From contig JBFMGU010000141.1 in assembly GCA_040752415.1 (NCBI GenBank), forward strand, positions 1 through 27,735: 27,735 nt of DNA, read 5' to 3'. This document shows, in pieces, positions 11,428 to 20,968 of this stretch. This DNA is from Myxococcota bacterium (GTDB taxonomy: Bacteria; Myxococcota; JACRCW01). Position 1 is the first letter of the stretch; the number at the start of each line of letters is the position of its first letter. Below the pieces are notes generated by a model, which was given only the letters and a program-made list of their open reading frames with translations, did no database searches and had not been told where the DNA came from. A program made the translations under genes and the position numbers.

Positions 11428-12449
11428 CAGCGCATCCTGCGAAATCGGAGGAACAAGAACGCGACGAACGGCAACACGTGTGCATCACCCGTCCCGTTGC
11501 ATCCGGTCCGTTCCGTCGGCGGAGAATACTCCGAGGTGTGGTACAGCAGCACCGCGCTTGCCGCGCCGTAATGGACCGCGGTGGTGTGCGGATACCTGCC
11601 GCTCCCCCACACGACGATACCGGGCTCGGTGAGACGGGCACGGTAACCGTCGGAGCTCAGGGACACCCGCACGCCGTTCACTTCCCTGCCGTCCTGGTCG
11701 AACGTGCGGGGCCACGCCGTTCCCTGCCCGCCGTCGCGCGGGTCGCGCACCTCGAGCTCGATGCGGGCAACATCCCGCGCAACCGTGATGTCCATGAGGA
11801 AACCGGCGTCGCCAACGGATACGTCCAGTGAGCCCGCCTCGGCGCATCTCACGACGATGCCGTCCATGGGCTCCTCGGTCGATGATGGACGCGTTTGGCA
11901 GCTGGAGGCCAGCTGGGGAACCGCACGGCCGTGCAATGCAACTCCGTCATTTCGATAGCGGAACCATAGTGTCGTTTCGTATTCACCAAGCAAATGGAGC
12001 GTCGTCAGCGGCTCCGCGTCGGTTTCGCCGAGAAAGGCCACGCTCTGAGGCGAGAAAACGAGCAGCTCATCCGGCTGCCGAATGGCAAGCGTTGTCTGAC
12101 CGATCACCGCGCCAGCGGAGTTCTTTGCAACCAGGACCGCCTCGCCGGTTGCCCGCGCCTGGATGCGCGCGTCCACACCCACACCCTCCGAGCGTCCAAC
12201 ACTGCTGACGTCCACGACGGCAACGACGTCCGGCGACGAGGACTCCACCGTGGCCGGGATGTCTTCCTCTTCCAGGGTACTGGCTGTGGCGTAGACGAAG
12301 ATCGTGGGCTCGGCGCTCAGGACGAGCGGCTGCTCAAGTGGGGTGATGACCCGACCGGCGAATCCAAAGTGGACCGGCACGGGAGCACGCTCCTGCTGCC
12401 CCGAACACGCGGGCCACAGCAGGACCAGGAGAACGCCGGCGGTGCGCAC
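11427..12449 (-). CDS. Putative lipoprotein with Ig-like beta-rich region and a MYXO-CTERM-like C-terminal tail
   Basis: The GTG start gives MRTAGVLLVLLWPA-C (lipobox-like). ATVESSSPDVVAV and ARATGEAVLVA resemble Ig-like (Big_2) strands. The C-terminus is TGCNGTGDAHVLPFVAFLFLRFRRMR. Start is inferred. Confidence 0.65.
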   Translation of the reverse strand: MRTAGVLLVLLWPACSGQQERAPVPVHFGFAGRVITPLEQPLVLSAEPTIFVYATASTLEEEDIPATVESSSPDVVAVVDVSSVGRSEGVGVDARIQARATGEAVLVAKNSAGAVIGQTTLAIRQPDELLVFSPQSVAFLGETDAEPLTTLHLLGEYETTLWFRYRNDGVALHGRAVPQLASSCQTRPSSTEEPMDGIVVRCAEAGSLDVSVGDAGFLMDITVARDVARIELEVRDPRDGGQGTAWPRTFDQDGREVNGVRVSLSSDGYRARLTEPGIVVWGSGRYPHTTAVHYGAASAVLLYHTSEYSPPTERTGCNGTGDAHVLPFVAFLFLRFRRMR

Positions 12450-12602
12450 GGGAGAAACATAGCATGCGGCGAATCGACGGGGAGAAACGGCTCCCGCCCG
12501 CGGCACCTTCCGCCTCGTCGTGATGTCCGCGCCAACGCCTGGCTTGAGGGGCCGCGTCTCGTCGGTAGAACGACGCAGGTGCAGCACAGGTGGAGGCAAG
12601 CC

Positions 12603-13262
12603 ATGAGATTGCACGCGCTTTTCTACGGGTTGCTGATGGCAGCCCTTGGCGTCGGGATGGCAATGGACTCCCGCGCCCAGGATGAGAAGTCCGGAGCCGC
12701 GGCCGGTGCCGAGATGAAGGACACCGACCAGCGCGGGCTGGGAGACAAGCTGGATGAGCAGAAGCCCCTGGACACCGGCGTGGACACCGGCACCACCATG
12801 GGTGACGTGGACACCGGGACCAAGAAGGACGAGGCGGCGCCCATGGGCGCTCAGCCCGGCGTCGACACCGAGGCTCCGGTGGGTGAGCAGGCACCACCGG
12901 CGCAGCCCGGCGCGGGCGGCGACACCATGCCGCAGCCCGGCGCGCAGCAGGGCATGGCCGCGCCCGTCGACCACGTGAACATGGTGCTCTCCAGGCTGGA
13001 CCGGTTGGAGAAGCTGGTGAATGACCTGGACCAGGTCAGCAAGTCCGGCGGCGAGAACAAGTACGCCAACAAGATCAACCGCAACATCAAGGACATGCGC
13101 GAGAAGATCGCCGACCTGCGCAAGAAGGTGCAGGACGACAAGGACTTCACCGAGAAGGACTACGACAAGGTGGAGAAGGACCTCGGCAAGCTGAAGGTGA
13201 AGTTCGCCGACACCGCCTGGTACCTGCCCGCGGATCAGCAGGAGCGGCTCGGCAAGCCGTGA
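12603..13262 (+). CDS. Hypothetical secreted protein (acidic low-complexity region plus Lys/Asp-rich helical domain)
   Basis: GGAGG at 12592-12596 before ATG 12603; signal peptide MRLHALFYGLLMAALGVGMAMDSRA-Q; strong G/C third-position bias. Confidence 0.8.
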   Translation: MRLHALFYGLLMAALGVGMAMDSRAQDEKSGAAAGAEMKDTDQRGLGDKLDEQKPLDTGVDTGTTMGDVDTGTKKDEAAPMGAQPGVDTEAPVGEQAPPAQPGAGGDTMPQPGAQQGMAAPVDHVNMVLSRLDRLEKLVNDLDQVSKSGGENKYANKINRNIKDMREKIADLRKKVQDDKDFTEKDYDKVEKDLGKLKVKFADTAWYLPADQQERLGKP

Positions 13263-13343
13263 TGCCGCACAAGCAGGGCGCGGAACGGATTGGCCTGCGC
13301 AGCGGAGGGGTGACCTGCGCTGCGTGGGCCTGTTTCCGTGGGC

Positions 13344-14204
13344 TCATCCCTCCGCGCAGCCCCCGGTCTCCGGCGGAGTGGCCAGCACGGTCAGTCCCGG
13401 GGCGGGGGCCGTGGCACGTCGTGAGCTCTCCCCGCCCGCCTGCTCCCACGCGCGCAGCACGTCGCGGTCCAGCAGGTGCGTGGGACGGACGTTCTTCAAC
13501 GCGCGCGCCATGACGTGACGCACCTGCGGATGCCGCGCCGCCAGGCCGTTGAGCAGCTCACGCATCTGGTCGCGCTGCAGGCCCTCCTGGGAGCCGCACA
13601 GGTTGCAGGGCAGGATGGGGAAGGCCTGCAGCCGCGCGAACTCCGCGAGCTGCTCCTCCCCCACGTCGATGAGCGGGCGGATGACCTCGAAGCGCCCGTC
13701 GTCGGTGGTGTAGCGCGCCGGCATGGCCTGCAGCTTCCCGGTGAAGAACATGTTCATCAGGAAGGTCTCCAGCGCGTCGTCACGGTGGTGGCCCAGCGCG
13801 ATCTTGTTGCACCCCAGCCGCGCCGCCGCGCTGTACAGGATCCCGCGCCGCAGCCGGCTGCACACCGCGCAGTACGTCCCGCCCTGGGGCGTGCGCTCCA
13901 CCACCGTGGTGTAGGTGTCCTCGTGGATGATCTCGTGCGGGATGCCGCTTTCGCGCAGCCAGTCGGCCAGCGGCGCGCCGTGGTAGCCGGGCTGGCCCTG
14001 GTCCACGTGAACCGCCGTGAGCTGGAACGCAAACGGTGCGCGCGCGCGGGCCCGCCACAACAGGTGCAAGAGCGCGTAGCTGTCCTTGCCGCCGCTGATG
14101 GCCACCAGGATGTGGTCGCCGGCGCGGATGAGCCCGTGCTCCTCCACGGTGCGCATCATGCTGCGGGCCAGGCTCTTCTCCAGGTTGTGCGCGGGGTGGG
14201 ACAT
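13344..14204 (-). CDS. ttcA: tRNA 2-thiocytidine(32) synthetase TtcA
   Basis: PP-loop VAISGGKDS, CAVCSRLRRGILY, IALGHHRDD, VIRPL and PCNLCGSQ. Start refined to MSHPAH. Confidence 0.95.
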   Translation of the reverse strand: MSHPAHNLEKSLARSMMRTVEEHGLIRAGDHILVAISGGKDSYALLHLLWRARARAPFAFQLTAVHVDQGQPGYHGAPLADWLRESGIPHEIIHEDTYTTVVERTPQGGTYCAVCSRLRRGILYSAAARLGCNKIALGHHRDDALETFLMNMFFTGKLQAMPARYTTDDGRFEVIRPLIDVGEEQLAEFARLQAFPILPCNLCGSQEGLQRDQMRELLNGLAARHPQVRHVMARALKNVRPTHLLDRDVLRAWEQAGGESSRRATAPAPGLTVLATPPETGGCAEG

Positions 14205-14476
14205 GCCCCCCGGATAACCATGCGGCGGGTGGGATGGCAACCCGCATGACGTGAGGAGGGCGCACAGCCACCACGTCCCGCGCGACGGCAGATTCCCATG
14301 CAAGGTGCGTTGGCACCCGTTACCCTCCCCTCAGCGCTCACGGGCCCGCCATAGCTTTTCGGGCATTTTCTCGTCGGACGGAGCCAGCGGCACCGGCCGG
14401 AGGGAACAGAACGGAAGGCCAGGTGGTCTTGGTGAGCAGGTCTGCATGCACGCGCCGCGCGCCCCGACGAGGTCCC

Positions 14477-15307
14477 ATGATCCGCAATCCCCTCCGCGCC
14501 TTGTTTGTGTTGCCCCTGCTCTTGTGGGGGCGTGAGGTCCTGGCCTGCCCGCCCATGGCCCTGGGTGAGTCCGGCGGCGTCCTGGACGTCCTCTTCCCGC
14601 TGCTGCTGCTGGTGGGCGTTCACACCCTGGTGTTCCGGCTGCTGGCCCCGCCTCCGCTCGCGTTCTCCGAGGAGCGTCGCTTGTGGGGCCTGCGCGCGTG
14701 GAGCGCCGTGCTGAGCGCGTTCCTCATGGCCACGTTCTCGGTGCGGGAATGGTGGGGCTACGCGCGCAAGCTCACGGAGACCATGCGCCAGAAGATCATG
14801 CTGGAGGGCATCAGTGAGGCCTTCAAGCGCCTGGCCAAGGAGGAGCCACGCACCTTCACGCGCATCAGCGGCATGGCGGCGGTGACCGCGGGCCTGGCCA
14901 CCGCGGGCATGTGGACCTGGACCGGCCTGGATCCCGACGTCACCTGGGGTCAGGGCCTGGAGATCCCCATCCTGTTCGCCGTGGACACCGTGTTGACCTG
15001 GACGGTGGTGCGTTTCCTGGCCATGCGCATGGGCTTGCACCTGGCCAAGGACATGGTGGGCCAGCCCGGCTTCTTCCAGCTGTTCCACACCCTGGTGCGC
15101 GGTGGCCTGCTCGGCGGTGCCGCGGGCTGGGTTTTTGGCGCGCTGTTCGGCCTGAGCAGCGGCATCCAGACCTGGGCGTGCATCACCTACGCCACGGTGG
15201 ACGTGATGCCCATGCTGGCCGGCTGGTACGGCCTCAACAGCGTCATCACCGGCGGCGCGGCGGGCGTGATGATGGCGGGCTACCTGATGTGGCGTCGCGG
15301 GAAGTGA
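14477..15307 (+). CDS. Hypothetical multi-pass membrane protein
   Basis: GAGG before ATG 14477; signal-like N-terminus; several hydrophobic/Gly-rich helices; typical codon bias. Confidence 0.72.
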   Translation: MIRNPLRALFVLPLLLWGREVLACPPMALGESGGVLDVLFPLLLLVGVHTLVFRLLAPPPLAFSEERRLWGLRAWSAVLSAFLMATFSVREWWGYARKLTETMRQKIMLEGISEAFKRLAKEEPRTFTRISGMAAVTAGLATAGMWTWTGLDPDVTWGQGLEIPILFAVDTVLTWTVVRFLAMRMGLHLAKDMVGQPGFFQLFHTLVRGGLLGGAAGWVFGALFGLSSGIQTWACITYATVDVMPMLAGWYGLNSVITGGAAGVMMAGYLMWRRGK

Positions 15308-15310
15308 GCC

Positions 15311-16438
15311 TCACGCGCCCTTGTAGCTGAGCAGCGGTGTGAGCCTGCGTTCCACCGCCACCAGCTCCGCCTGCGCCCGCATCACCGCGCGCACGTCCTT
15401 GTAGGCCTCCGGCGCCTCATCCCTGAGCTGTTCCGCCAGGCGCCCGTCAAAGAAGACCCCTTCCATCTGACGCAACAGCTTCCGCGCGCTCACCCGTCGA
15501 CGCGCCTCGCTCCGGCTCAACCTGCGTCCGGCGCCGTGGGCACTGCTGCACAACGCCCGCGCACAGCCGCGTCCGCGCACGTGGTGGCTCACGCTCCCCA
15601 TGGAACCGGGGACGATGCCGCGCTCGCCCTCGGCGGCGGGGATCGCGCCCTTGCGGTGCACCAGCAGGTCCCGTCCCTCGTGCTCTTCGAGGCGGACGTG
15701 GTTGTGGCCGCATTGGAACAGCGTGTCCTCGTCGATGTCCACGCGGAAGAGCGCGCGCATCAGCTCCGCCACCTGCAGCGCCATGGCTCGGCGACTCTCC
15801 TCGGCGAAGCGCAGGGCCCACGCGAGATCAGCCAGGTAGGCGGCACCGGTGACGTCGTGGAGCTCCAAGGCGTGCAGGGGTCCGGAGTGGACGGTGGCCT
15901 GCTGCAGGTGATGGGCGCGGATGGCGGGACCGAGGGCACGGGAACCGCTGTGAACCATGAGCCACAGCGCATCCTGCTCGTCGGACTGCAGCTCCAGGAA
16001 GTGGTTTCCCCGCCCCAGCGTGGCGAACTCCCGCGTGCCCTCCCAGCGCTTCATGCGCTCAAGGCGCGGATGGCTGAGCTCCTGGTCGACGAGGCCGCGC
16101 GGCAGCTCACGGGGACCCGGGTGCATCAGCGCCGGAATGGTCTCCGAGAGATGGTGCAGCAGGGTGGCGGCGCGACGCGGGTGGCGGAGGAGGTCCGCCC
16201 CGACGTCAAACCGCACCGCCAACATGCCGCAGCCAATGTCCCCGCCCACCGCCTGCGGGTAGAGGAGATGCGTGGTGGCCAGCACCGTGCCCACGCACAC
16301 GTCCTCCGCCAGGTGCACGTCTGGCATCACCGCCACCTGCACCACGTCGTCGGCGCGACGCAGGCGCTCCAGCGCGCGCTGCACGTCCTCCGGGAGCGGC
16401 GCGGTGAGCCAGCAGTGCATGGGTGCTGTGGCGCTCAT
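15311..16438 (-). CDS. rtcB: RtcB-family RNA ligase (3'-phosphate/2',3'-cyclic phosphate to 5'-OH)
   Basis: All hallmark motifs are present: MPDVH, GGDIGCG, TLGRGNHF, VHSGSR, HNH, HRKGA, PGSMG, SSAHGAGR (guanylylated His), DEAPEAYK and terminal YKG. RBS GAGGAGG. Confidence 0.95.
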   Translation of the reverse strand: MSATAPMHCWLTAPLPEDVQRALERLRRADDVVQVAVMPDVHLAEDVCVGTVLATTHLLYPQAVGGDIGCGMLAVRFDVGADLLRHPRRAATLLHHLSETIPALMHPGPRELPRGLVDQELSHPRLERMKRWEGTREFATLGRGNHFLELQSDEQDALWLMVHSGSRALGPAIRAHHLQQATVHSGPLHALELHDVTGAAYLADLAWALRFAEESRRAMALQVAELMRALFRVDIDEDTLFQCGHNHVRLEEHEGRDLLVHRKGAIPAAEGERGIVPGSMGSVSHHVRGRGCARALCSSAHGAGRRLSRSEARRRVSARKLLRQMEGVFFDGRLAEQLRDEAPEAYKDVRAVMRAQAELVAVERRLTPLLSYKGA

Positions 16439-16854
16439 GGTTCCTCCTCGAGGTCCAGCGGCGCGGGGCCGGGCGGGACCACGGTGAAGGTGAGCTCGGG
16501 AACCCGCTTGCGGTGCAGGCTGGTGGCGAGCACGTGTCGCAAGGGTCCCCGGATGCGCTCCAACGCCGCGCGGACCGCGTCGACGTCGACGTGGGAAGGG
16601 GCCGCAAGGACCAGCTCCAGGCGTGAAGCGTCGGGAGCGGGATGGGTGTGGAGGACCATCACGTCCTGCAGCACCTCCTCGCGCACTTCCCCGGCGAGGA
16701 ACAGTGCGCTCAAACGCTGGACCTCGTCGCAGAGCTGACGGAGCTTGCGCTCCCGCGCGCGGTCCGCGGAATGGGAAAAGAAATCCGCATCCACCTCGAC
16801 GAGGTGGTCGGTGATACGCCGCGAACGACGCCGCGGCTCTCTGGGCATGCCCAT
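16435..16854 (-). CDS. RbfA-like protein (divergent ribosome-binding factor A paralogue)
   Basis: RKLRQLCDEVQR helix, VLQDVMVLHTHPAPDASRL, ALERIRGPLRHVLA and RKRVPELTF match the RbfA layout. The stop overlaps the rtcB ATG (ATGA). Start is 16854 or 16848. Confidence 0.8.
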   Translation of the reverse strand: MGMPREPRRRSRRITDHLVEVDADFFSHSADRARERKLRQLCDEVQRLSALFLAGEVREEVLQDVMVLHTHPAPDASRLELVLAAPSHVDVDAVRAALERIRGPLRHVLATSLHRKRVPELTFTVVPPGPAPLDLEEEP

Positions 16855-16863
16855 GGACAAACC

Positions 16864-16928
16864 CGCACCGGCCCGCCGCTTCAGGGCAGGAATCCGGGCG
16901 TGATGAAGAGGAGTTTTCCCTCGGGCGG
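16864..16928 (-). promoter_or_regulatory. Putative attenuator: alternative GC-rich hairpins between the leader ORF and the rbfA-like start
   Basis: On the - strand, CGCCCGG-ATT-CCTGCC-CTGAAGC-GGCGGG-CCGG-T-GCG (16900-16864) forms a stem ending 9 nt before ATG 16854. A second hairpin is GAGG-GAAAACT-CCTC (16922-16908). CGCCCG occurs twice, allowing alternative pairing. Confidence 0.45.
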
Positions 16929-16930
16929 AG

Positions 16931-16990
16931 TCAGCGCGTGACGCCGCGGACGAGGGCCGGGACAACGCGGAAGGTCAGAGTGGCACGCAT
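16931..16990 (-). CDS. Putative 19-aa leader peptide (MRATLTFRVVPALVRGVTR)
   Basis: ATG at 16990 is preceded by the purine-rich GGAGGAGAAAGGGA; TGA at 16933-16931 sits directly before the hairpins. Too short for the ORF track. Confidence 0.55.
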   Translation of the reverse strand: MRATLTFRVVPALVRGVTR

Positions 16991-17119
16991 GGTCCGGTCC
17001 CTTTCTCCTCCCGCTGGGCGTGGCTGGGGAGGGTGTGTGAGCGCGCTTGGACGCCGCGGGTGGGCCGCACATTCAACGCGGGTCCGGATCACACCACCGG
17101 GGTCCGCTAGGATCCGCGC

Positions 17120-17629
17120 GTGAGCTCCGGCGTCATGGTGGCGGTCGACGTGGACTACCGCGAGGACGAGGCGGTGGCCGCGGCGATCTTGTTCCGCTCC
17201 TGGACTGACGCTTCGTCCTGCGGCCAGCACGTGGCGCGCGTGGCCGGTGTTGCTCCCTATGTGCCGGGCGAGCTGTACCGTCGTGAGCTGCCGGCGCTGC
17301 TTGCGGTACTGGCAAAGGTCCCGGACGTGCTGAGTTGCGTCGTGGTGGACGGCTTCGTGTGGCTGGATGAGCAGGGCCGCAAGGGCCTGGGCGCCCATCT
17401 CCACGACGCCCTGGGCGGGGCGGTCCCCGTGGTGGGCGTGGCCAAGAGCGGGTTCCGGGGCAGCCGGCATGCCGTCCCCGTGTTGCGCGGTGGCAGCCGC
17501 CGTCCGCTGTGGATCACCGCCGTGGGAATCCCAGTCGACGCTGCCGCCGACGGCGTTGCGCGCATGCACGGGAATCACCGGATCCCCACGCTGTTGCAGG
17601 CCACCGATGCGTTGTGTCGTCGCGCGTGA
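17120..17629 (+). CDS. nfi: Endonuclease V family protein (short form)
   Basis: AVDVDY, PYVPGELYRRELP (PYIP wedge), VVVDG, GLGAHL, GVAKS and RIPTLL. Start is GTG 17120 or ATG 17135. Confidence 0.9.
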   Translation: MSSGVMVAVDVDYREDEAVAAAILFRSWTDASSCGQHVARVAGVAPYVPGELYRRELPALLAVLAKVPDVLSCVVVDGFVWLDEQGRKGLGAHLHDALGGAVPVVGVAKSGFRGSRHAVPVLRGGSRRPLWITAVGIPVDAAADGVARMHGNHRIPTLLQATDALCRRA

Positions 17630-17650
17630 AACAGCGCCGGTCTGGCGACG

Positions 17651-18904
17651 GTGGTAGGGTTCCGGCGTTCCGACGTGGGGGCGCGCATGGTCTGGGTGTT
17701 GGCGCTGTTGGGGGTGGTGGGGCTCTTTTTCCTCGACGTGCGCTACGTGCAAGCGTGGCAGACGGGTCTGGCCGCGCTGGCGGCGGATGGGCGCTTTGAC
17801 CTCGTGGTCCGGGAGTGCGAGCGCGGGCTGGCCTCCCGTCGTCCCTTCCTGCTCGTGCTCCGCCACTTCGTCATGCCGGGCGTCATGGAAACCGTCGCGG
17901 CGCTCTACTGCCACCAGGCCGGAGAGAACGAGCGCTCCCTGGAGCTGGCGACGGAGGCGGAGCGTCGTGCGCGACCGGGACCCCTGCGGAACGCGGCCAC
18001 ATCCACCCGCGCCATGGCGCAGTACGGTCTGGGGCGCCTGGCGGAGGCGCGCGCGGCGTTCGAGGAGCTGCATGCCCTTCCCGACGTGCAGGCCGGCCTG
18101 CTCTGCCCCGGCGCGCTGGTGGCTCTCTCGGAATGCCGTTTCGAGGACGCCATTGCGCTGTGCAGCGAGATCCTGGAACGGGAGCCCGCCGACGAGAGCG
18201 CCCACCTCCTCAAGTCCACCGCGCTGACGGCGCTGGGAAGATTCGGTGAGGCGTTCAAGGCGCTGGACTACGAGCCGCGAGGGTCCCGCGCGTTCTACGC
18301 GCCGCGCGATCTCAAGCTCATGGATTCCGACTCCGGGTCCATTGCACTGCTCAACGAGCAGGAGCGCGAGCGCGCCGGAATCGTCCGCCCCTCGCCGCTG
18401 CTGCAGTCCGCGGAGATCGCCTCGCTCTCGGGGGACTGGCAGGCGACGCGCGTGTACCTGGAGTGGTCGCGGGACCGCCTGGGACGGAATCCCACGATCC
18501 TGTTCAACTTCCACGTGTTGATGGCCCGTTGCCTGGCGCACGAGGGAGATGCGCGTGGTGCGGAGGCCCAGCTCCGTCTCGCCGACACCGCGGCGCTCTC
18601 GCTCCCGAAGAACCAGAGCCTGCAGTGGGAGCGTGAGGTTGCGCACGCGCGGGTCGCCCTCGAGCTTTCGCGGCTCGACGACGCGTTGGCCGCGCTCTCG
18701 CGCGCGGAGCCGCTCGCGCGTTCACCCGCGCAGCGACGATGGTCGGCATTCTGGACCGCGCGCAGCCTCGAGGCCGCACAGCGCTTCCCGGAGGCCATCA
18801 CCCGCTACCGCGCCTTGACCGAGGCCAACCTCGCCGACTGGCCCCACGCGGAAGCCCGCCAGGCCTTGGCGCGTCTTACGTCGATGACGTCGAGTGCGAG
18901 CTGA
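17651..18904 (+). CDS. Membrane-anchored tetratricopeptide-repeat protein
   Basis: N-terminal TM segment (MVWVLALLGVVGLFFL) and TPR-like units (AQYGLGRLAEARAAFE, ALTALGRFGEAFKAL, EAAQRFPEAITRY). Start may be ATG 17687. Confidence 0.75.
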   Translation: MVGFRRSDVGARMVWVLALLGVVGLFFLDVRYVQAWQTGLAALAADGRFDLVVRECERGLASRRPFLLVLRHFVMPGVMETVAALYCHQAGENERSLELATEAERRARPGPLRNAATSTRAMAQYGLGRLAEARAAFEELHALPDVQAGLLCPGALVALSECRFEDAIALCSEILEREPADESAHLLKSTALTALGRFGEAFKALDYEPRGSRAFYAPRDLKLMDSDSGSIALLNEQERERAGIVRPSPLLQSAEIASLSGDWQATRVYLEWSRDRLGRNPTILFNFHVLMARCLAHEGDARGAEAQLRLADTAALSLPKNQSLQWEREVAHARVALELSRLDDALAALSRAEPLARSPAQRRWSAFWTARSLEAAQRFPEAITRYRALTEANLADWPHAEARQALARLTSMTSSAS

Positions 18905-18907
18905 CCT

Positions 18908-20083
18908 TCAACGCGCGGAGCTCATCACCGCCACCGGTCCGTCGGCGTTCAAGCGCACCACCACCGTCCCGTCCCAAGCCGTGGCGTAGACGGCGCGGTC
19001 CACCTGCACGCTGCTGAAGCGTCGCGGTCCGGAGGCCACCTGCGCGTCCACCGGGTTGCGCGAGGTGAGGATGGCATCCTGCAGCAGCTCCACCACCCGA
19101 CGACGGGGATGCCCGTGTGCGTGCGCGGTGAACGCATGACGACGGTCCGGTGGGCCGCAGCTGATCACGGCCACGCGTGGCGTGGTGGCCTGCAGCAGGG
19201 AGGGCGTGGTGCCATTGGCCGAGCCGTGATGCCCCACCACCAGCAGGTCCACGTCGAGTGCGCCGGTGCCCTCGTAGCGACGCACCAGGTCCTCGATGGC
19301 GGGCGTCTCGAGGTCCCCGGTGATGAGCAGCGACGCCGCGCCAAAGTCCACGCGCAGCACCACGCTGTGGTTGTTCTCGTCGGAGAAATGCGGCGTGCCG
19401 GATTCCTCCTCGCCCCAGCCCGGGTCGCCGGCGACGCTGCCGGAGAGCACGCGGATGCGCGGGTCCACCGTGGCGCACGCTAGCGGGTCCACCACCGCGT
19501 CGCTGAGGCCGCCGGCGGGAATCTCGTCGGAGCGCACCGCGCGCTCGCCGATGTCGCCGCGTTGCAGCCGCGATCGCAGCACGTCCATCTGCTCCCGCAC
19601 CACCTCTCCGCCGGGCTGGCCGTTGTGCACCACGTTGCGAACCACGTAGCGCTGCAACACCGCGGGAACGCCTCGCACATGGTCGAGATGCGGGTGGGTG
19701 AGCACCAACAAGGCCAGCGTGTGATTCAGGTCGCTCCGACGGGCGAAGAACGCGTCCAACTGCGTGAGCAGCGCCTGTTCGCCGTCAAAGTCGCCGTTGC
19801 GCTCGCCACCGGTGTCCACCAGCACCGCGCCGCACGGTGTCTCCAGCAGCGTGGCCGAGCCCTGGCCCACGTCGAGGACGTGCACGGTGAGCGTGCGCTC
19901 GGGGTTCCACGCGAACGCACCGCTGCTGACGCGCGGGGCAGGCGGCGGGGTTGCCTCCGCTTCCACCGTCGACGGAGCGGCCGGCTCGGGCGTGGGCTCC
20001 CGTTGCGCGGGGGACTGCGAGGCGCAGGCCGCAAGCAGAAGCGTGAGCAGGTGTGCTGGCAGGAGCAGGTGTTGGCGAGGCAT
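18908..20083 (-). CDS. ComEC/Rec2-like metallo-beta-lactamase-fold hydrolase, lipoprotein
   Basis: LDVGQG, LVDTGG, LTHPHLDHVRG, ENNHSVVL, LITGDL, VGHHGS and HGHP motifs; lipobox LLLAA-C. No ComEC membrane domain. Confidence 0.88.
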   Translation of the reverse strand: MPRQHLLLPAHLLTLLLAACASQSPAQREPTPEPAAPSTVEAEATPPPAPRVSSGAFAWNPERTLTVHVLDVGQGSATLLETPCGAVLVDTGGERNGDFDGEQALLTQLDAFFARRSDLNHTLALLVLTHPHLDHVRGVPAVLQRYVVRNVVHNGQPGGEVVREQMDVLRSRLQRGDIGERAVRSDEIPAGGLSDAVVDPLACATVDPRIRVLSGSVAGDPGWGEEESGTPHFSDENNHSVVLRVDFGAASLLITGDLETPAIEDLVRRYEGTGALDVDLLVVGHHGSANGTTPSLLQATTPRVAVISCGPPDRRHAFTAHAHGHPRRRVVELLQDAILTSRNPVDAQVASGPRRFSSVQVDRAVYATAWDGTVVVRLNADGPVAVMSSAR

Positions 20084-20092
20084 CGTCCGGCC

Positions 20093-20968
20093 ATGGGTGA
20101 TCTCATTCTCGTGGCGGGTTGTACAGGCGTGCTGGGACGGCACGTGGTGAAGCTGCTGCAGGCGCGTGGACATCGCGTGCGGGCGCTGACGCGCGACAAG
20201 TCACGGTTGGGCAGCCTGGGCTTCACTCCCGACGAGGTGCACGAGGCGGACGCGCTGGATCCCGCTCGCCTCACGGGTGCGTGCGACGGTGTGACGCGCG
20301 TGTTCTCGTGCCTGGGCGCCAGTGTGCAGCCGTTGCCGCGCTTGGGTCGCGCGACGTTCAGCCAGGTGGATTGGCCGGCGAACCGCAATCTCGTCGACGA
20401 GGCCAAGCGCGCGGGGGTGTCCCGCATGGTCTACGTCTCGGTGCACGGCGGGCAGCAGGCGCGTGGGCTGGACTACATGGATGCGCACGAGCGGGTGGTG
20501 GAGCACCTGCAGGCCAGCGGTCTCGACCACGGCGTGGTGCGCCCCACCGGCTTCTTCTCCGCGCTCGAGTCCTTGCTGGAGATGGCGCAGGGCGGGACGG
20601 CGCCGTTGATGGGCGGGGGAACCACCCGCAGCAACCCCATCCACGACGAGGAGCTCGCCGCGGCGTGCGTGGAGATGGTGGAGGGGCGGGAGCGTGAGGT
20701 GGAGGTGGGCGGCCCGGAGGTGCTGACGCGCAAGCAGATGGTGGAGCTGGCGTTTGCCGCGCTGGGCAAGCCGCCGAAGTTCCGCCACGTGCCGCTGGGC
20801 GTGGCGCGCATGGGCTCCACGCTGATGAAGCCGTTCCATCCGCGCCTGGCTGACCTGGGTCTCTTCTACGCATACCTGCACGCCCACGACGGAGTGGCGC
20901 CGCTGCGCGGTCAGAAGACGTTGGGAAACCACCTGAAGGAGCGGGCCCGGGCGCGCGGCCTGGCCTGA
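20093..20968 (+). CDS. Atypical SDR / NAD(P)H-binding oxidoreductase (NmrA/Ycf39-like)
   Basis: ILVAGCTGVLGR Rossmann motif, VRALTR, VYVS, VRPTGFF, NPIH and VGGPEVLT. Confidence 0.9.
   Translation: MGDLILVAGCTGVLGRHVVKLLQARGHRVRALTRDKSRLGSLGFTPDEVHEADALDPARLTGACDGVTRVFSCLGASVQPLPRLGRATFSQVDWPANRNLVDEAKRAGVSRMVYVSVHGGQQARGLDYMDAHERVVEHLQASGLDHGVVRPTGFFSALESLLEMAQGGTAPLMGGGTTRSNPIHDEELAAACVEMVEGREREVEVGGPEVLTRKQMVELAFAALGKPPKFRHVPLGVARMGSTLMKPFHPRLADLGLFYAYLHAHDGVAPLRGQKTLGNHLKERARARGLA

Follow-up and report, generated by a model that had tools for sequence, protein, structure and literature searches.

The RbfA-like/rtcB locus

The stretch of DNA analyzed here, referred to as the window, comprises 27,735 nucleotides (positions 1 to 27,735, forward strand) of contig JBFMGU010000141.1 in the genome assembly of a Myxococcota bacterium (GCA_040752415.1). 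On its minus strand, two genes lie in tandem: a small gene whose product resembles the 30S ribosome assembly factor RbfA and, directly downstream, an rtcB gene encoding an RNA ligase (Table 1). The stop codon of the first gene and the start codon of the second share four nucleotides, and the Shine-Dalgarno sequence of rtcB is embedded in the RbfA-like gene, where it codes for the C-terminal Glu-Glu of the RbfA-like protein. Such a stop/start overlap implies translational coupling. The original prediction for this locus, made from the sequence alone, had noted both the overlap and the internal ribosome-binding site, and the open reading frame (ORF) calls and junction sequence agree. Judged from sequence, the locus is a divergent RbfA paralog that appears to be translationally coupled to a ligase from a distinct RtcB clade. 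It may represent an undescribed RNA repair pair, perhaps one that mends the small ribosomal subunit.

Table 1. Features of the RbfA-like/rtcB locus and its flank, in window coordinates
Feature	Position	Strand	Description
RbfA-like gene	16435..16854	minus	139 aa from ATG 16854; alternative ATG 16848 equally possible
Longest frame of RbfA-like ORF	TTG start at 16965	minus	176 aa
rtcB	15311..16438	minus	ATG start, 375 aa, short-form 3'-phosphate/5'-OH RNA ligase
ATGA stop/start overlap	16435..16438	minus	rtcB ATG 16438-16436; RbfA-like TGA 16437-16435
GAGGAGG Shine-Dalgarno sequence for rtcB	16443..16449	minus	4 nt before ATG, within RbfA-like 3' end
Divergent intergenic region	16855..17119	strandless	265 bp between RbfA-like gene and endonuclease V-like gene
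Endonuclease V-like gene	17120-17629	plus	169 aa; Pfam Endonuclease_5, 47.7 bits, profile positions 20-144 of 198
TPR protein gene	17651-18904		Downstream of endonuclease V-like gene

A divergent paralog of RbfA

The sole Pfam family matched by the RbfA-like protein was RBFA (PF02033), at an E value of 2e-5 and 25.3 bits, which is below the gathering score of 34.7; residues 41-124 aligned with profile positions 5-90 of 105. Scores against NCBIfam models were likewise below cutoff (13.6 bits for TIGR00082, cutoff 51.15; 19.4 bits for the best NCBIfam RbfA model, cutoff 142). Nonetheless, 75 of the 76 members of the RbfA-like family matched Pfam RBFA at an E value of ≤0.01, and a profile of six members searched against the PDB at an E value of ≤1 returned nine sequences, all of them RbfA, the best being 2dyj from T. 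thermophilus (4.4e-6). An AlphaFold2 (AF2) model made with a 76-row alignment had a mean predicted local distance difference test (pLDDT) score of 87.6. Its helices (H) and strands (E), H23-55, E66-72, E78-84, H91-100, H102-112, and E120-126, follow the a1-b1-b2-a2-a3-b3 order of the type II KH fold of RbfA. When this model was compared to the PDB with Foldseek, the top 20 matches were all RbfA chains, both bacterial and mitochondrial, with template modeling (TM) scores by target of 0.77 to 0.84 and root mean square deviations of 1.6 to 2.4 Å among the best. These results bear out the earlier assignment of the protein to a divergent RbfA fold, and we conclude that it is a divergent paralog of the 30S assembly factor RbfA. 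A single-sequence word-index search with the protein recovered only the query itself, the family being too divergent for that method.

The RbfA-like protein is an additional copy and not a replacement of the housekeeping rbfA. A whole-genome search of the assembly (11.0 Mb in 520 contigs) found a canonical rbfA (108 bits) on contig C66, where the genes run infB, DUF503, rbfA, DHH; a separate gene beside infB was what the original prediction had suggested looking for. Canonical RbfA (90 to 109 bits) was accompanied by a subthreshold copy (26 to 34 bits) in all five of the other pair-bearing genomes tested. The two kinds of protein have the same fold and order of elements, and the G-x-[LI]-R and R-x-R-x-x-P-E-L-x-F motifs of RbfA are kept in the RbfA-like protein. 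They differ in that the latter lies under the Pfam and NCBIfam cutoffs, is 23% identical to the genome's own RbfA, and carries ~35 additional aa as an Arg-rich N-terminal tail, along with a near-invariant Cys42, a PAPDASRL loop, and a variable equivalent of Phe78. Their surroundings differ as well: canonical rbfA is found in an infB-rbfA-truB context, whereas the additional copy adjoins rtcB.

Conservation within the family is concentrated in a few segments. Across the 76-row alignment, no substitutions occur at R106, R115, or P119; position 116 is K in 67 sequences and position 117 is R in 62 (the remainder being R or K, except for one L at 117), and G103 is kept in 58. Near-invariant positions are K37, Q40, C42 (70/76), P72, P74, R78, and L105, giving the consensus RK..QLC.QV.R.L ... 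PAPDASRL ... G.LR..VA.AI.RKRAPEL.F. The G.LR and R-K-R-x-P-E-L-x-F segments align with the A-x-G...R and R-x-R-x-x-P-E motifs of RbfA. The first of these is described in one structural report as an A-x-G helix-kink-helix, after which come a conserved aromatic, Phe78 of the E. coli protein, and an arginine (PMC8177701). The N-terminal extension of ~35 residues is specific to the RbfA-like family; its start is rich in Arg/Lys (median, five K/R among residues 1 to 15), a motif resembling D-D-G-x-D-P-x-x-F-F frequently comes next, and the modeling confidence is lower (pLDDT of 62 to 77). Both this tail motif and the near-invariant cysteine of helix 1 (QLC) are absent from canonical RbfA.

Linkage and distribution of the pair

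We combined the tables of an RbfA-like profile search and a window-RtcB search of 401 Myxococcota genomes. The profile matched 191 of these genomes, a count that includes canonical RbfA (the canonical copy in the window's genome scored 37.7 bits). The RtcB search contributed 150 listed places, with 75 RbfA-like and 27 RtcB matches outside the listing left uncounted. Among the matches listed, 97 of 103 RtcB places scoring at least 215 bits are immediately preceded by an RbfA-like match in the same orientation, and the six unpaired ones may have partners among the matches outside the listing; only 1 of the 47 lower-scoring places, which represent other paralogs, is paired.

The linkage extends well beyond Myxococcota. 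A scan of one genome per species yielded 56 loci titled Planctomycetota, Acidobacteriota, Gemmatimonadales, Limnocylindrales (Chloroflexota), Polyangiaceae, and Plesiocystis, and at 49 of them an RtcB 42 to 66% identical to that of the window is encoded directly downstream on the same strand. Forty-one of these linked RtcBs are intact and full length; the other eight are fragments, are split, or run off the end of a contig. Adjacency to rtcB, which the original prediction had offered as a check, thus holds in both samples, and the two genes are passed on together in no fewer than five bacterial phyla (Planctomycetota, Acidobacteriota, Gemmatimonadota, Chloroflexota, and Myxococcota). At 63 of the 64 loci that yielded both genes, rtcB begins before the upstream ORF ends, with an overlap of 4 nt at 29 loci, 8 nt at 32, and other lengths at 2. 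An overlap that recurs so regularly is more than chance. At 55 of the 64, a Shine-Dalgarno-like motif is present in the 15 nt that precede the rtcB start. Clustering of all ORFs from 57 loci gave no third recurrent gene: besides the pair, only frames overlapping the RbfA-like gene and rtcB recur, and the next real cluster is present in 3 loci. Given a dedicated ligase clade, near-universal translational coupling, and coinheritance across phyla, the partnership of the RbfA-like protein and RtcB is well supported.

The family of the small partner is large, with 2,877 cluster representatives at an E value of ≤1e-3 and 1,434 at ≤1e-10 in a library of 1.84 billion proteins. Its members are labeled "ribosome-binding factor A" or "hypothetical" in databases, and the linked ligases are labeled "RtcB family protein." A search for fused forms of 323 to 2000 aa found none, which is weak evidence. 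Database entries from Archangium and Paludibaculum fermentans include proteins identical to linked RtcBs; since the pair occurs in these cultured organisms, hypotheses about its function are directly testable.

The linked RtcB clade

The ligase in the window is a clear member of the Pfam RtcB family (PF01139; 256.3 bits, cutoff 27). Its motifs GGDIGCGM, GNHFLE, HSGSR, HNH, and SSAHGAGR align with the RtcBs of T. thermophilus and P. horikoshii, and D67, C70, N145, H146, H163, H245, and H301, which we take to be the metal ligands and the GMP-histidine, are invariant among the 41 linked RtcBs. The alignment to solved RtcBs and this invariance confirm the initial impression that the catalytic motifs are retained. 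Scores against more specific models were low, at 180 bits for PRK09588 (cutoff 407) and 144.1 bits for TIGR03073, the PrfH-coupled RtcB2 (cutoff 271.8), which places the ligase outside RtcB2. No NCBIfam model scored above its cutoff for either the RbfA-like protein or the window RtcB.

We placed the 41 linked RtcBs in a quick maximum-likelihood tree (LG+G4; support from the Shimodaira-Hasegawa-like approximate likelihood ratio test [SH-aLRT] only) together with nine unlinked paralogs from the same genomes and four TIGR03073-positive ligases. The linked sequences form one side of a branch (SH-aLRT, 96 to 97), and the RtcB2-type ligases fall in a separate clade (support, 99); the deeper order is uncertain given long branches and the quick method. 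Members of different phyla are interspersed in the linked clade. A sequence from a Limnocylindrales (Chloroflexota) metagenome-assembled genome (MAG) (L091) lies among Acidobacteriaceae, and a Gemmatimonadales MAG sequence (L086) nests within Acidobacteriota, suggesting either horizontal transfer of the pair or misbinned contigs.

The window copy is one of four RtcB paralogs in its genome. On contig C118, archease adjoins rtcB; contig C102 carries rtcR, rtcB, and rtcA, with a weak TROVE-like match upstream; and on contig C243 a solo rtcB lies beside a glycosyltransferase gene. The original prediction had remarked that the window offers no infB, truB, rtcA, rtcR, or TROVE context. This stands for infB, rtcA, rtcR, and TROVE, which are on other contigs; truB was not the object of a search. 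A genome-wide search for prfH (TIGR03072) gave none at the cutoff, the best match being 125 bits against 166.65, on another contig.

Like archease-RtcB and RtcR-RtcB-RtcA, both of which occur in the window's genome, the pair consists of an RtcB paralog with a dedicated partner gene beside it. Archease and RtcA, however, have folds unrelated to that of the RbfA-like protein and act on RtcB guanylylation or on RNA ends, whereas no catalytic site is predicted for the RbfA-like protein, whose fold is one that binds RNA or ribosomes. We regard the finding as a putative RtcB repair module with a dedicated partner. The searchable literature returned no description of the pairing, in keeping with the first impression that it was uncharacterized, although it may have been mentioned before.

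Comparison with RtcB2-PrfH

Also close to the pair is the RtcB2-PrfH operon of E. coli ATCC 25922 (Tian et al. 2022, PMC9304027; Maviza et al. 2022 and 2026, PMC9223846, PMC13166195). Both systems consist of two genes encoding a short-form RtcB and a small paralog of a translation apparatus protein, both are sporadically distributed over several phyla, and the proposed logic, a ribosome-recognizing partner and a ligase, is the same. What defines the RtcB2-PrfH module is specific religation of 16S rRNA cut at A1493/G1494 in the 30S subunit. The differences lie in the partner, which here is an RbfA (KH) paralog without peptidyl-tRNA hydrolase and not a release factor paralog; in the ligase, which is not of the RtcB2 type; and in gene order, with the partner gene here coming first and overlapping the ligase gene.

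Ligases above the TIGR03073 cutoff were found in 89 of the 401 Myxococcota genomes, and 72 of 98 pair-bearing genomes have an RtcB2-type ligase elsewhere. The suggestion in the original prediction that the RbfA-like protein fills the role of PrfH is weakened on four counts: the linked RtcB belongs to a different clade, most pair-bearing genomes also have an RtcB2-type ligase, and RbfA has no peptidyl-tRNA hydrolase domain. The fourth is the site of action that had been assumed, since high-resolution work places canonical RbfA not near the decoding region but on the 16S 3' tail, at the mRNA exit channel (PMC8177701).

In four pair-bearing genomes with an RtcB2-type ligase, no PrfH was found at an E value of ≤1e-40. 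In a myxobacterium without PrfH at that threshold, the genes rsfS and rlmH are followed directly by one of the RtcB2-type genes (L131, G344:C1:5869103-5873170; TIGR03073, 467 bits). RtcB2-type ligases occur in 87 of 172 genomes of this myxobacterium's family, and their presence without PrfH seems common, PrfH having been checked in four genomes only.

A possible role in ribosome repair

We tentatively propose, at a little under an even chance, that the two genes form a self-contained RNA repair operon in which the RbfA-like protein holds the 3' region of 16S rRNA on the 30S subunit and RtcB reseals it. The RbfA-like protein would be the RNA-recognition or RNA-holding subunit, contacting RNA through the conserved KH helix-kink-helix face (G-x-L-R ... 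R-K-R-x-P-E-L-x-F) and the Arg-rich N-terminal tail. As RbfA does, it would bind the 16S rRNA 3' region on a free or damaged 30S subunit, and it would keep the broken ends, or a severed 3' fragment, in place. Using GTP and Mn2+, the cotranslated RtcB would next close the break between the 2',3'-cyclic-phosphate and 5'-OH ends. Such a system would constitute a second, PrfH-independent route of ribosome repair, directed at a lesion other than that of RtcB2-type ligases.

Four considerations point toward the ribosome. No relative of the small protein could be detected other than ribosome-binding RbfA, and the basic residues of the KH face are kept. The KH face of RbfA is reported to bind 16S G1530-A1536, and RbfA to bind the 16S 3' tail (PMC8177701). 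Finally, there is precedent for RtcB ligases that reseal 16S rRNA (PMC9304027, PMC13166195): RtcB2 is reported to repair cut 30S subunits (PMC9304027), and E. coli RtcB is reported to religate the 16S 3' end cut by MazF (PMC5416887). It also speaks for this proposal that other RtcB paralogs in the window's genome have partners of their own (archease; RtcR/RtcA). 30S recognition and rRNA repair appear plausible as the function of the pair.

A more specific version, in which the RbfA-like protein is a damage-specific 30S docking factor, is possible but doubtful. It would occupy the RbfA site (the 16S 3' tail and neck) and pass broken 3'-minor-domain rRNA to its own RtcB, making the pair a second PrfH-independent repair system, widespread in soil Acidobacteriota, Planctomycetota, and Myxococcota. 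For most bacterial RtcB ligases the substrate is not known, and according to Tian et al. 2022 (PMC9304027), five of the eight clusters of RtcB sequences await assignment. The clade described here brings a built-in clue in the form of a partner derived from a 30S-binding assembly factor, and the docking model, if true, would supply a substrate for one of the clusters left unassigned. More generally, ribosome repair by the pair, if true, would bring the examples of enzymatic ribosome repair to two and would give an RbfA paralog a repair function for the first time.

Several points weigh against a ribosomal role. That the RbfA-like protein binds 30S subunits, 16S rRNA, or RtcB is something that we infer. 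The RbfA-like protein shares only 23% identity with the canonical RbfA of the window's genome in an 83-residue alignment (BLASTP E value, 0.23), which leaves room for a change of target. According to the structural report, Phe78 of E. coli RbfA stacks on 16S A1534-C1535 (PMC8177701), and the equivalent column, following the Gly, is variable in the RbfA-like family (R in 17, F in 14, L in 9, W in 8, and Y in 5 of 76) and is Pro in the window's protein. The nearest neighbors of the linked RtcBs in our tree are RtcA-linked ligases of the E. coli type and a solo paralog (support, 91), and in E. coli a ligase of this type is reported to have repaired tRNA and not cut 30S subunits (PMC9304027). Last, some RbfA-like genes are orphans. 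Among the 30 best Myxococcota loci, 9 had no RtcB in the locus as first fetched, and all 8 that could be extended still had none within 4 to 6 kb on each side; 7 of the 56 cross-phylum loci also lack RtcB. The protein can therefore persist without an adjacent ligase. A complex prediction for RtcB and the RbfA-like protein, each with its own alignment, scored 0.07 where the mark was 0.32, and counts neither for nor against binding.

The loss of the stacking aromatic and the position of the ligase clade would fit another explanation, namely, that RtcBs of this clade have in the RbfA-like protein a dedicated cofactor or substrate adaptor for nonribosomal RNA, such as nuclease-cut tRNA or mRNA, with the KH fold serving as a general single-strand RNA clamp in a manner comparable to archease or other helpers of RtcB. 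Strict linkage and coupling show partnership only and not the target, the residue with which RbfA reads the 16S 3' tail is not conserved, and the ligases group with the E. coli-type RtcA-linked enzymes rather than with RtcB2. Moreover, Cys42, the PAPDASRL loop, and the basic N-terminal tail, all absent from RbfA, suggest a new specificity. We nevertheless consider this account rather unlikely, given that every detectable relative binds the ribosome, that the basic residues of the RbfA RNA face are kept, and that RtcA-linked and archease-linked RtcBs already serve general repair in these genomes.

The orphan genes would sit comfortably with a different possibility, in which the RbfA-like protein serves 30S assembly, hibernation, or quality control at times of stress and is merely coexpressed with RtcB. 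It would park or re-mature 30S subunits while the ligase acts independently, with no physical handover. Homology to RbfA agrees with this as well, and the RtcB2-type gene behind rsfS-rlmH in one myxobacterium indicates that ligase genes can ride in ribosome operons. However, an overlap retained at nearly every locus and a single RtcB clade across five phyla are more typical of the subunits of one machine, and no other ribosome gene is conserved nearby, so we regard mere coexpression as quite improbable. The orphan subfamily (L047-L054, L099, L103, L106, and others), which includes loci titled Polyangiaceae and Plesiocystis, has varied neighbors (kinase, TPR, and beta-helix proteins). In the Myxococcota orphan genomes G062, G067, G087, G097, G102, G111, and G208, only lower-scoring RtcB paralogs are present among the matches listed.

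At three loci (L102, L104, and L105), RtcB is found downstream of an intact-looking RbfA-like gene only in fragments, which suggests decay of the ligase with the small gene kept. This pattern, together with the upstream position, the tight translational coupling, the small size, and the disordered charged tail of the RbfA-like protein, could be taken to mean that it restrains or gates RtcB, acting much like an antitoxin, as an inhibitor or specificity filter that blocks DNA/RNA capping or off-target ligation as long as the proper substrate is missing. There is only a slim prospect of this in our view. Nothing indicates that RtcB is toxic, no PADLOC family matched the four proteins tested (the RbfA-like protein, RtcB, and two neighbors), and the orphans without adjacent RtcB argue for a function of the RbfA-like protein itself.

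Surroundings and expression of the pair

The operon promoter presumably lies in the 265-bp divergent intergenic region, which we regard as a candidate site; a promoter/terminator scan of this region gave no sigma-70 consensus or terminator. An Rfam scan of the whole window produced no match. In RNA libraries, a myxobacterial copy of the pair was represented only by long contigs at ~91% identity, which possibly reflect DNA carryover; one contig of 945 nt (run X23) spans the RbfA-like/rtcB junction but is no proof of a transcript.

Pfam annotation of the window ORFs covered positions 11994 to 20173. The endonuclease V-like gene is transcribed divergently from the RbfA-like gene. It and the TPR protein gene were considered as parts of the module and rejected, as neither recurs at the other searched loci and no third gene is conserved. 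At one locus (L046:4875-5975, G032:C5), an IS630-type transposase gene (DDE_3 and HTH) is inserted between the RbfA-like gene and rtcB and so parts two genes that overlap at other loci.

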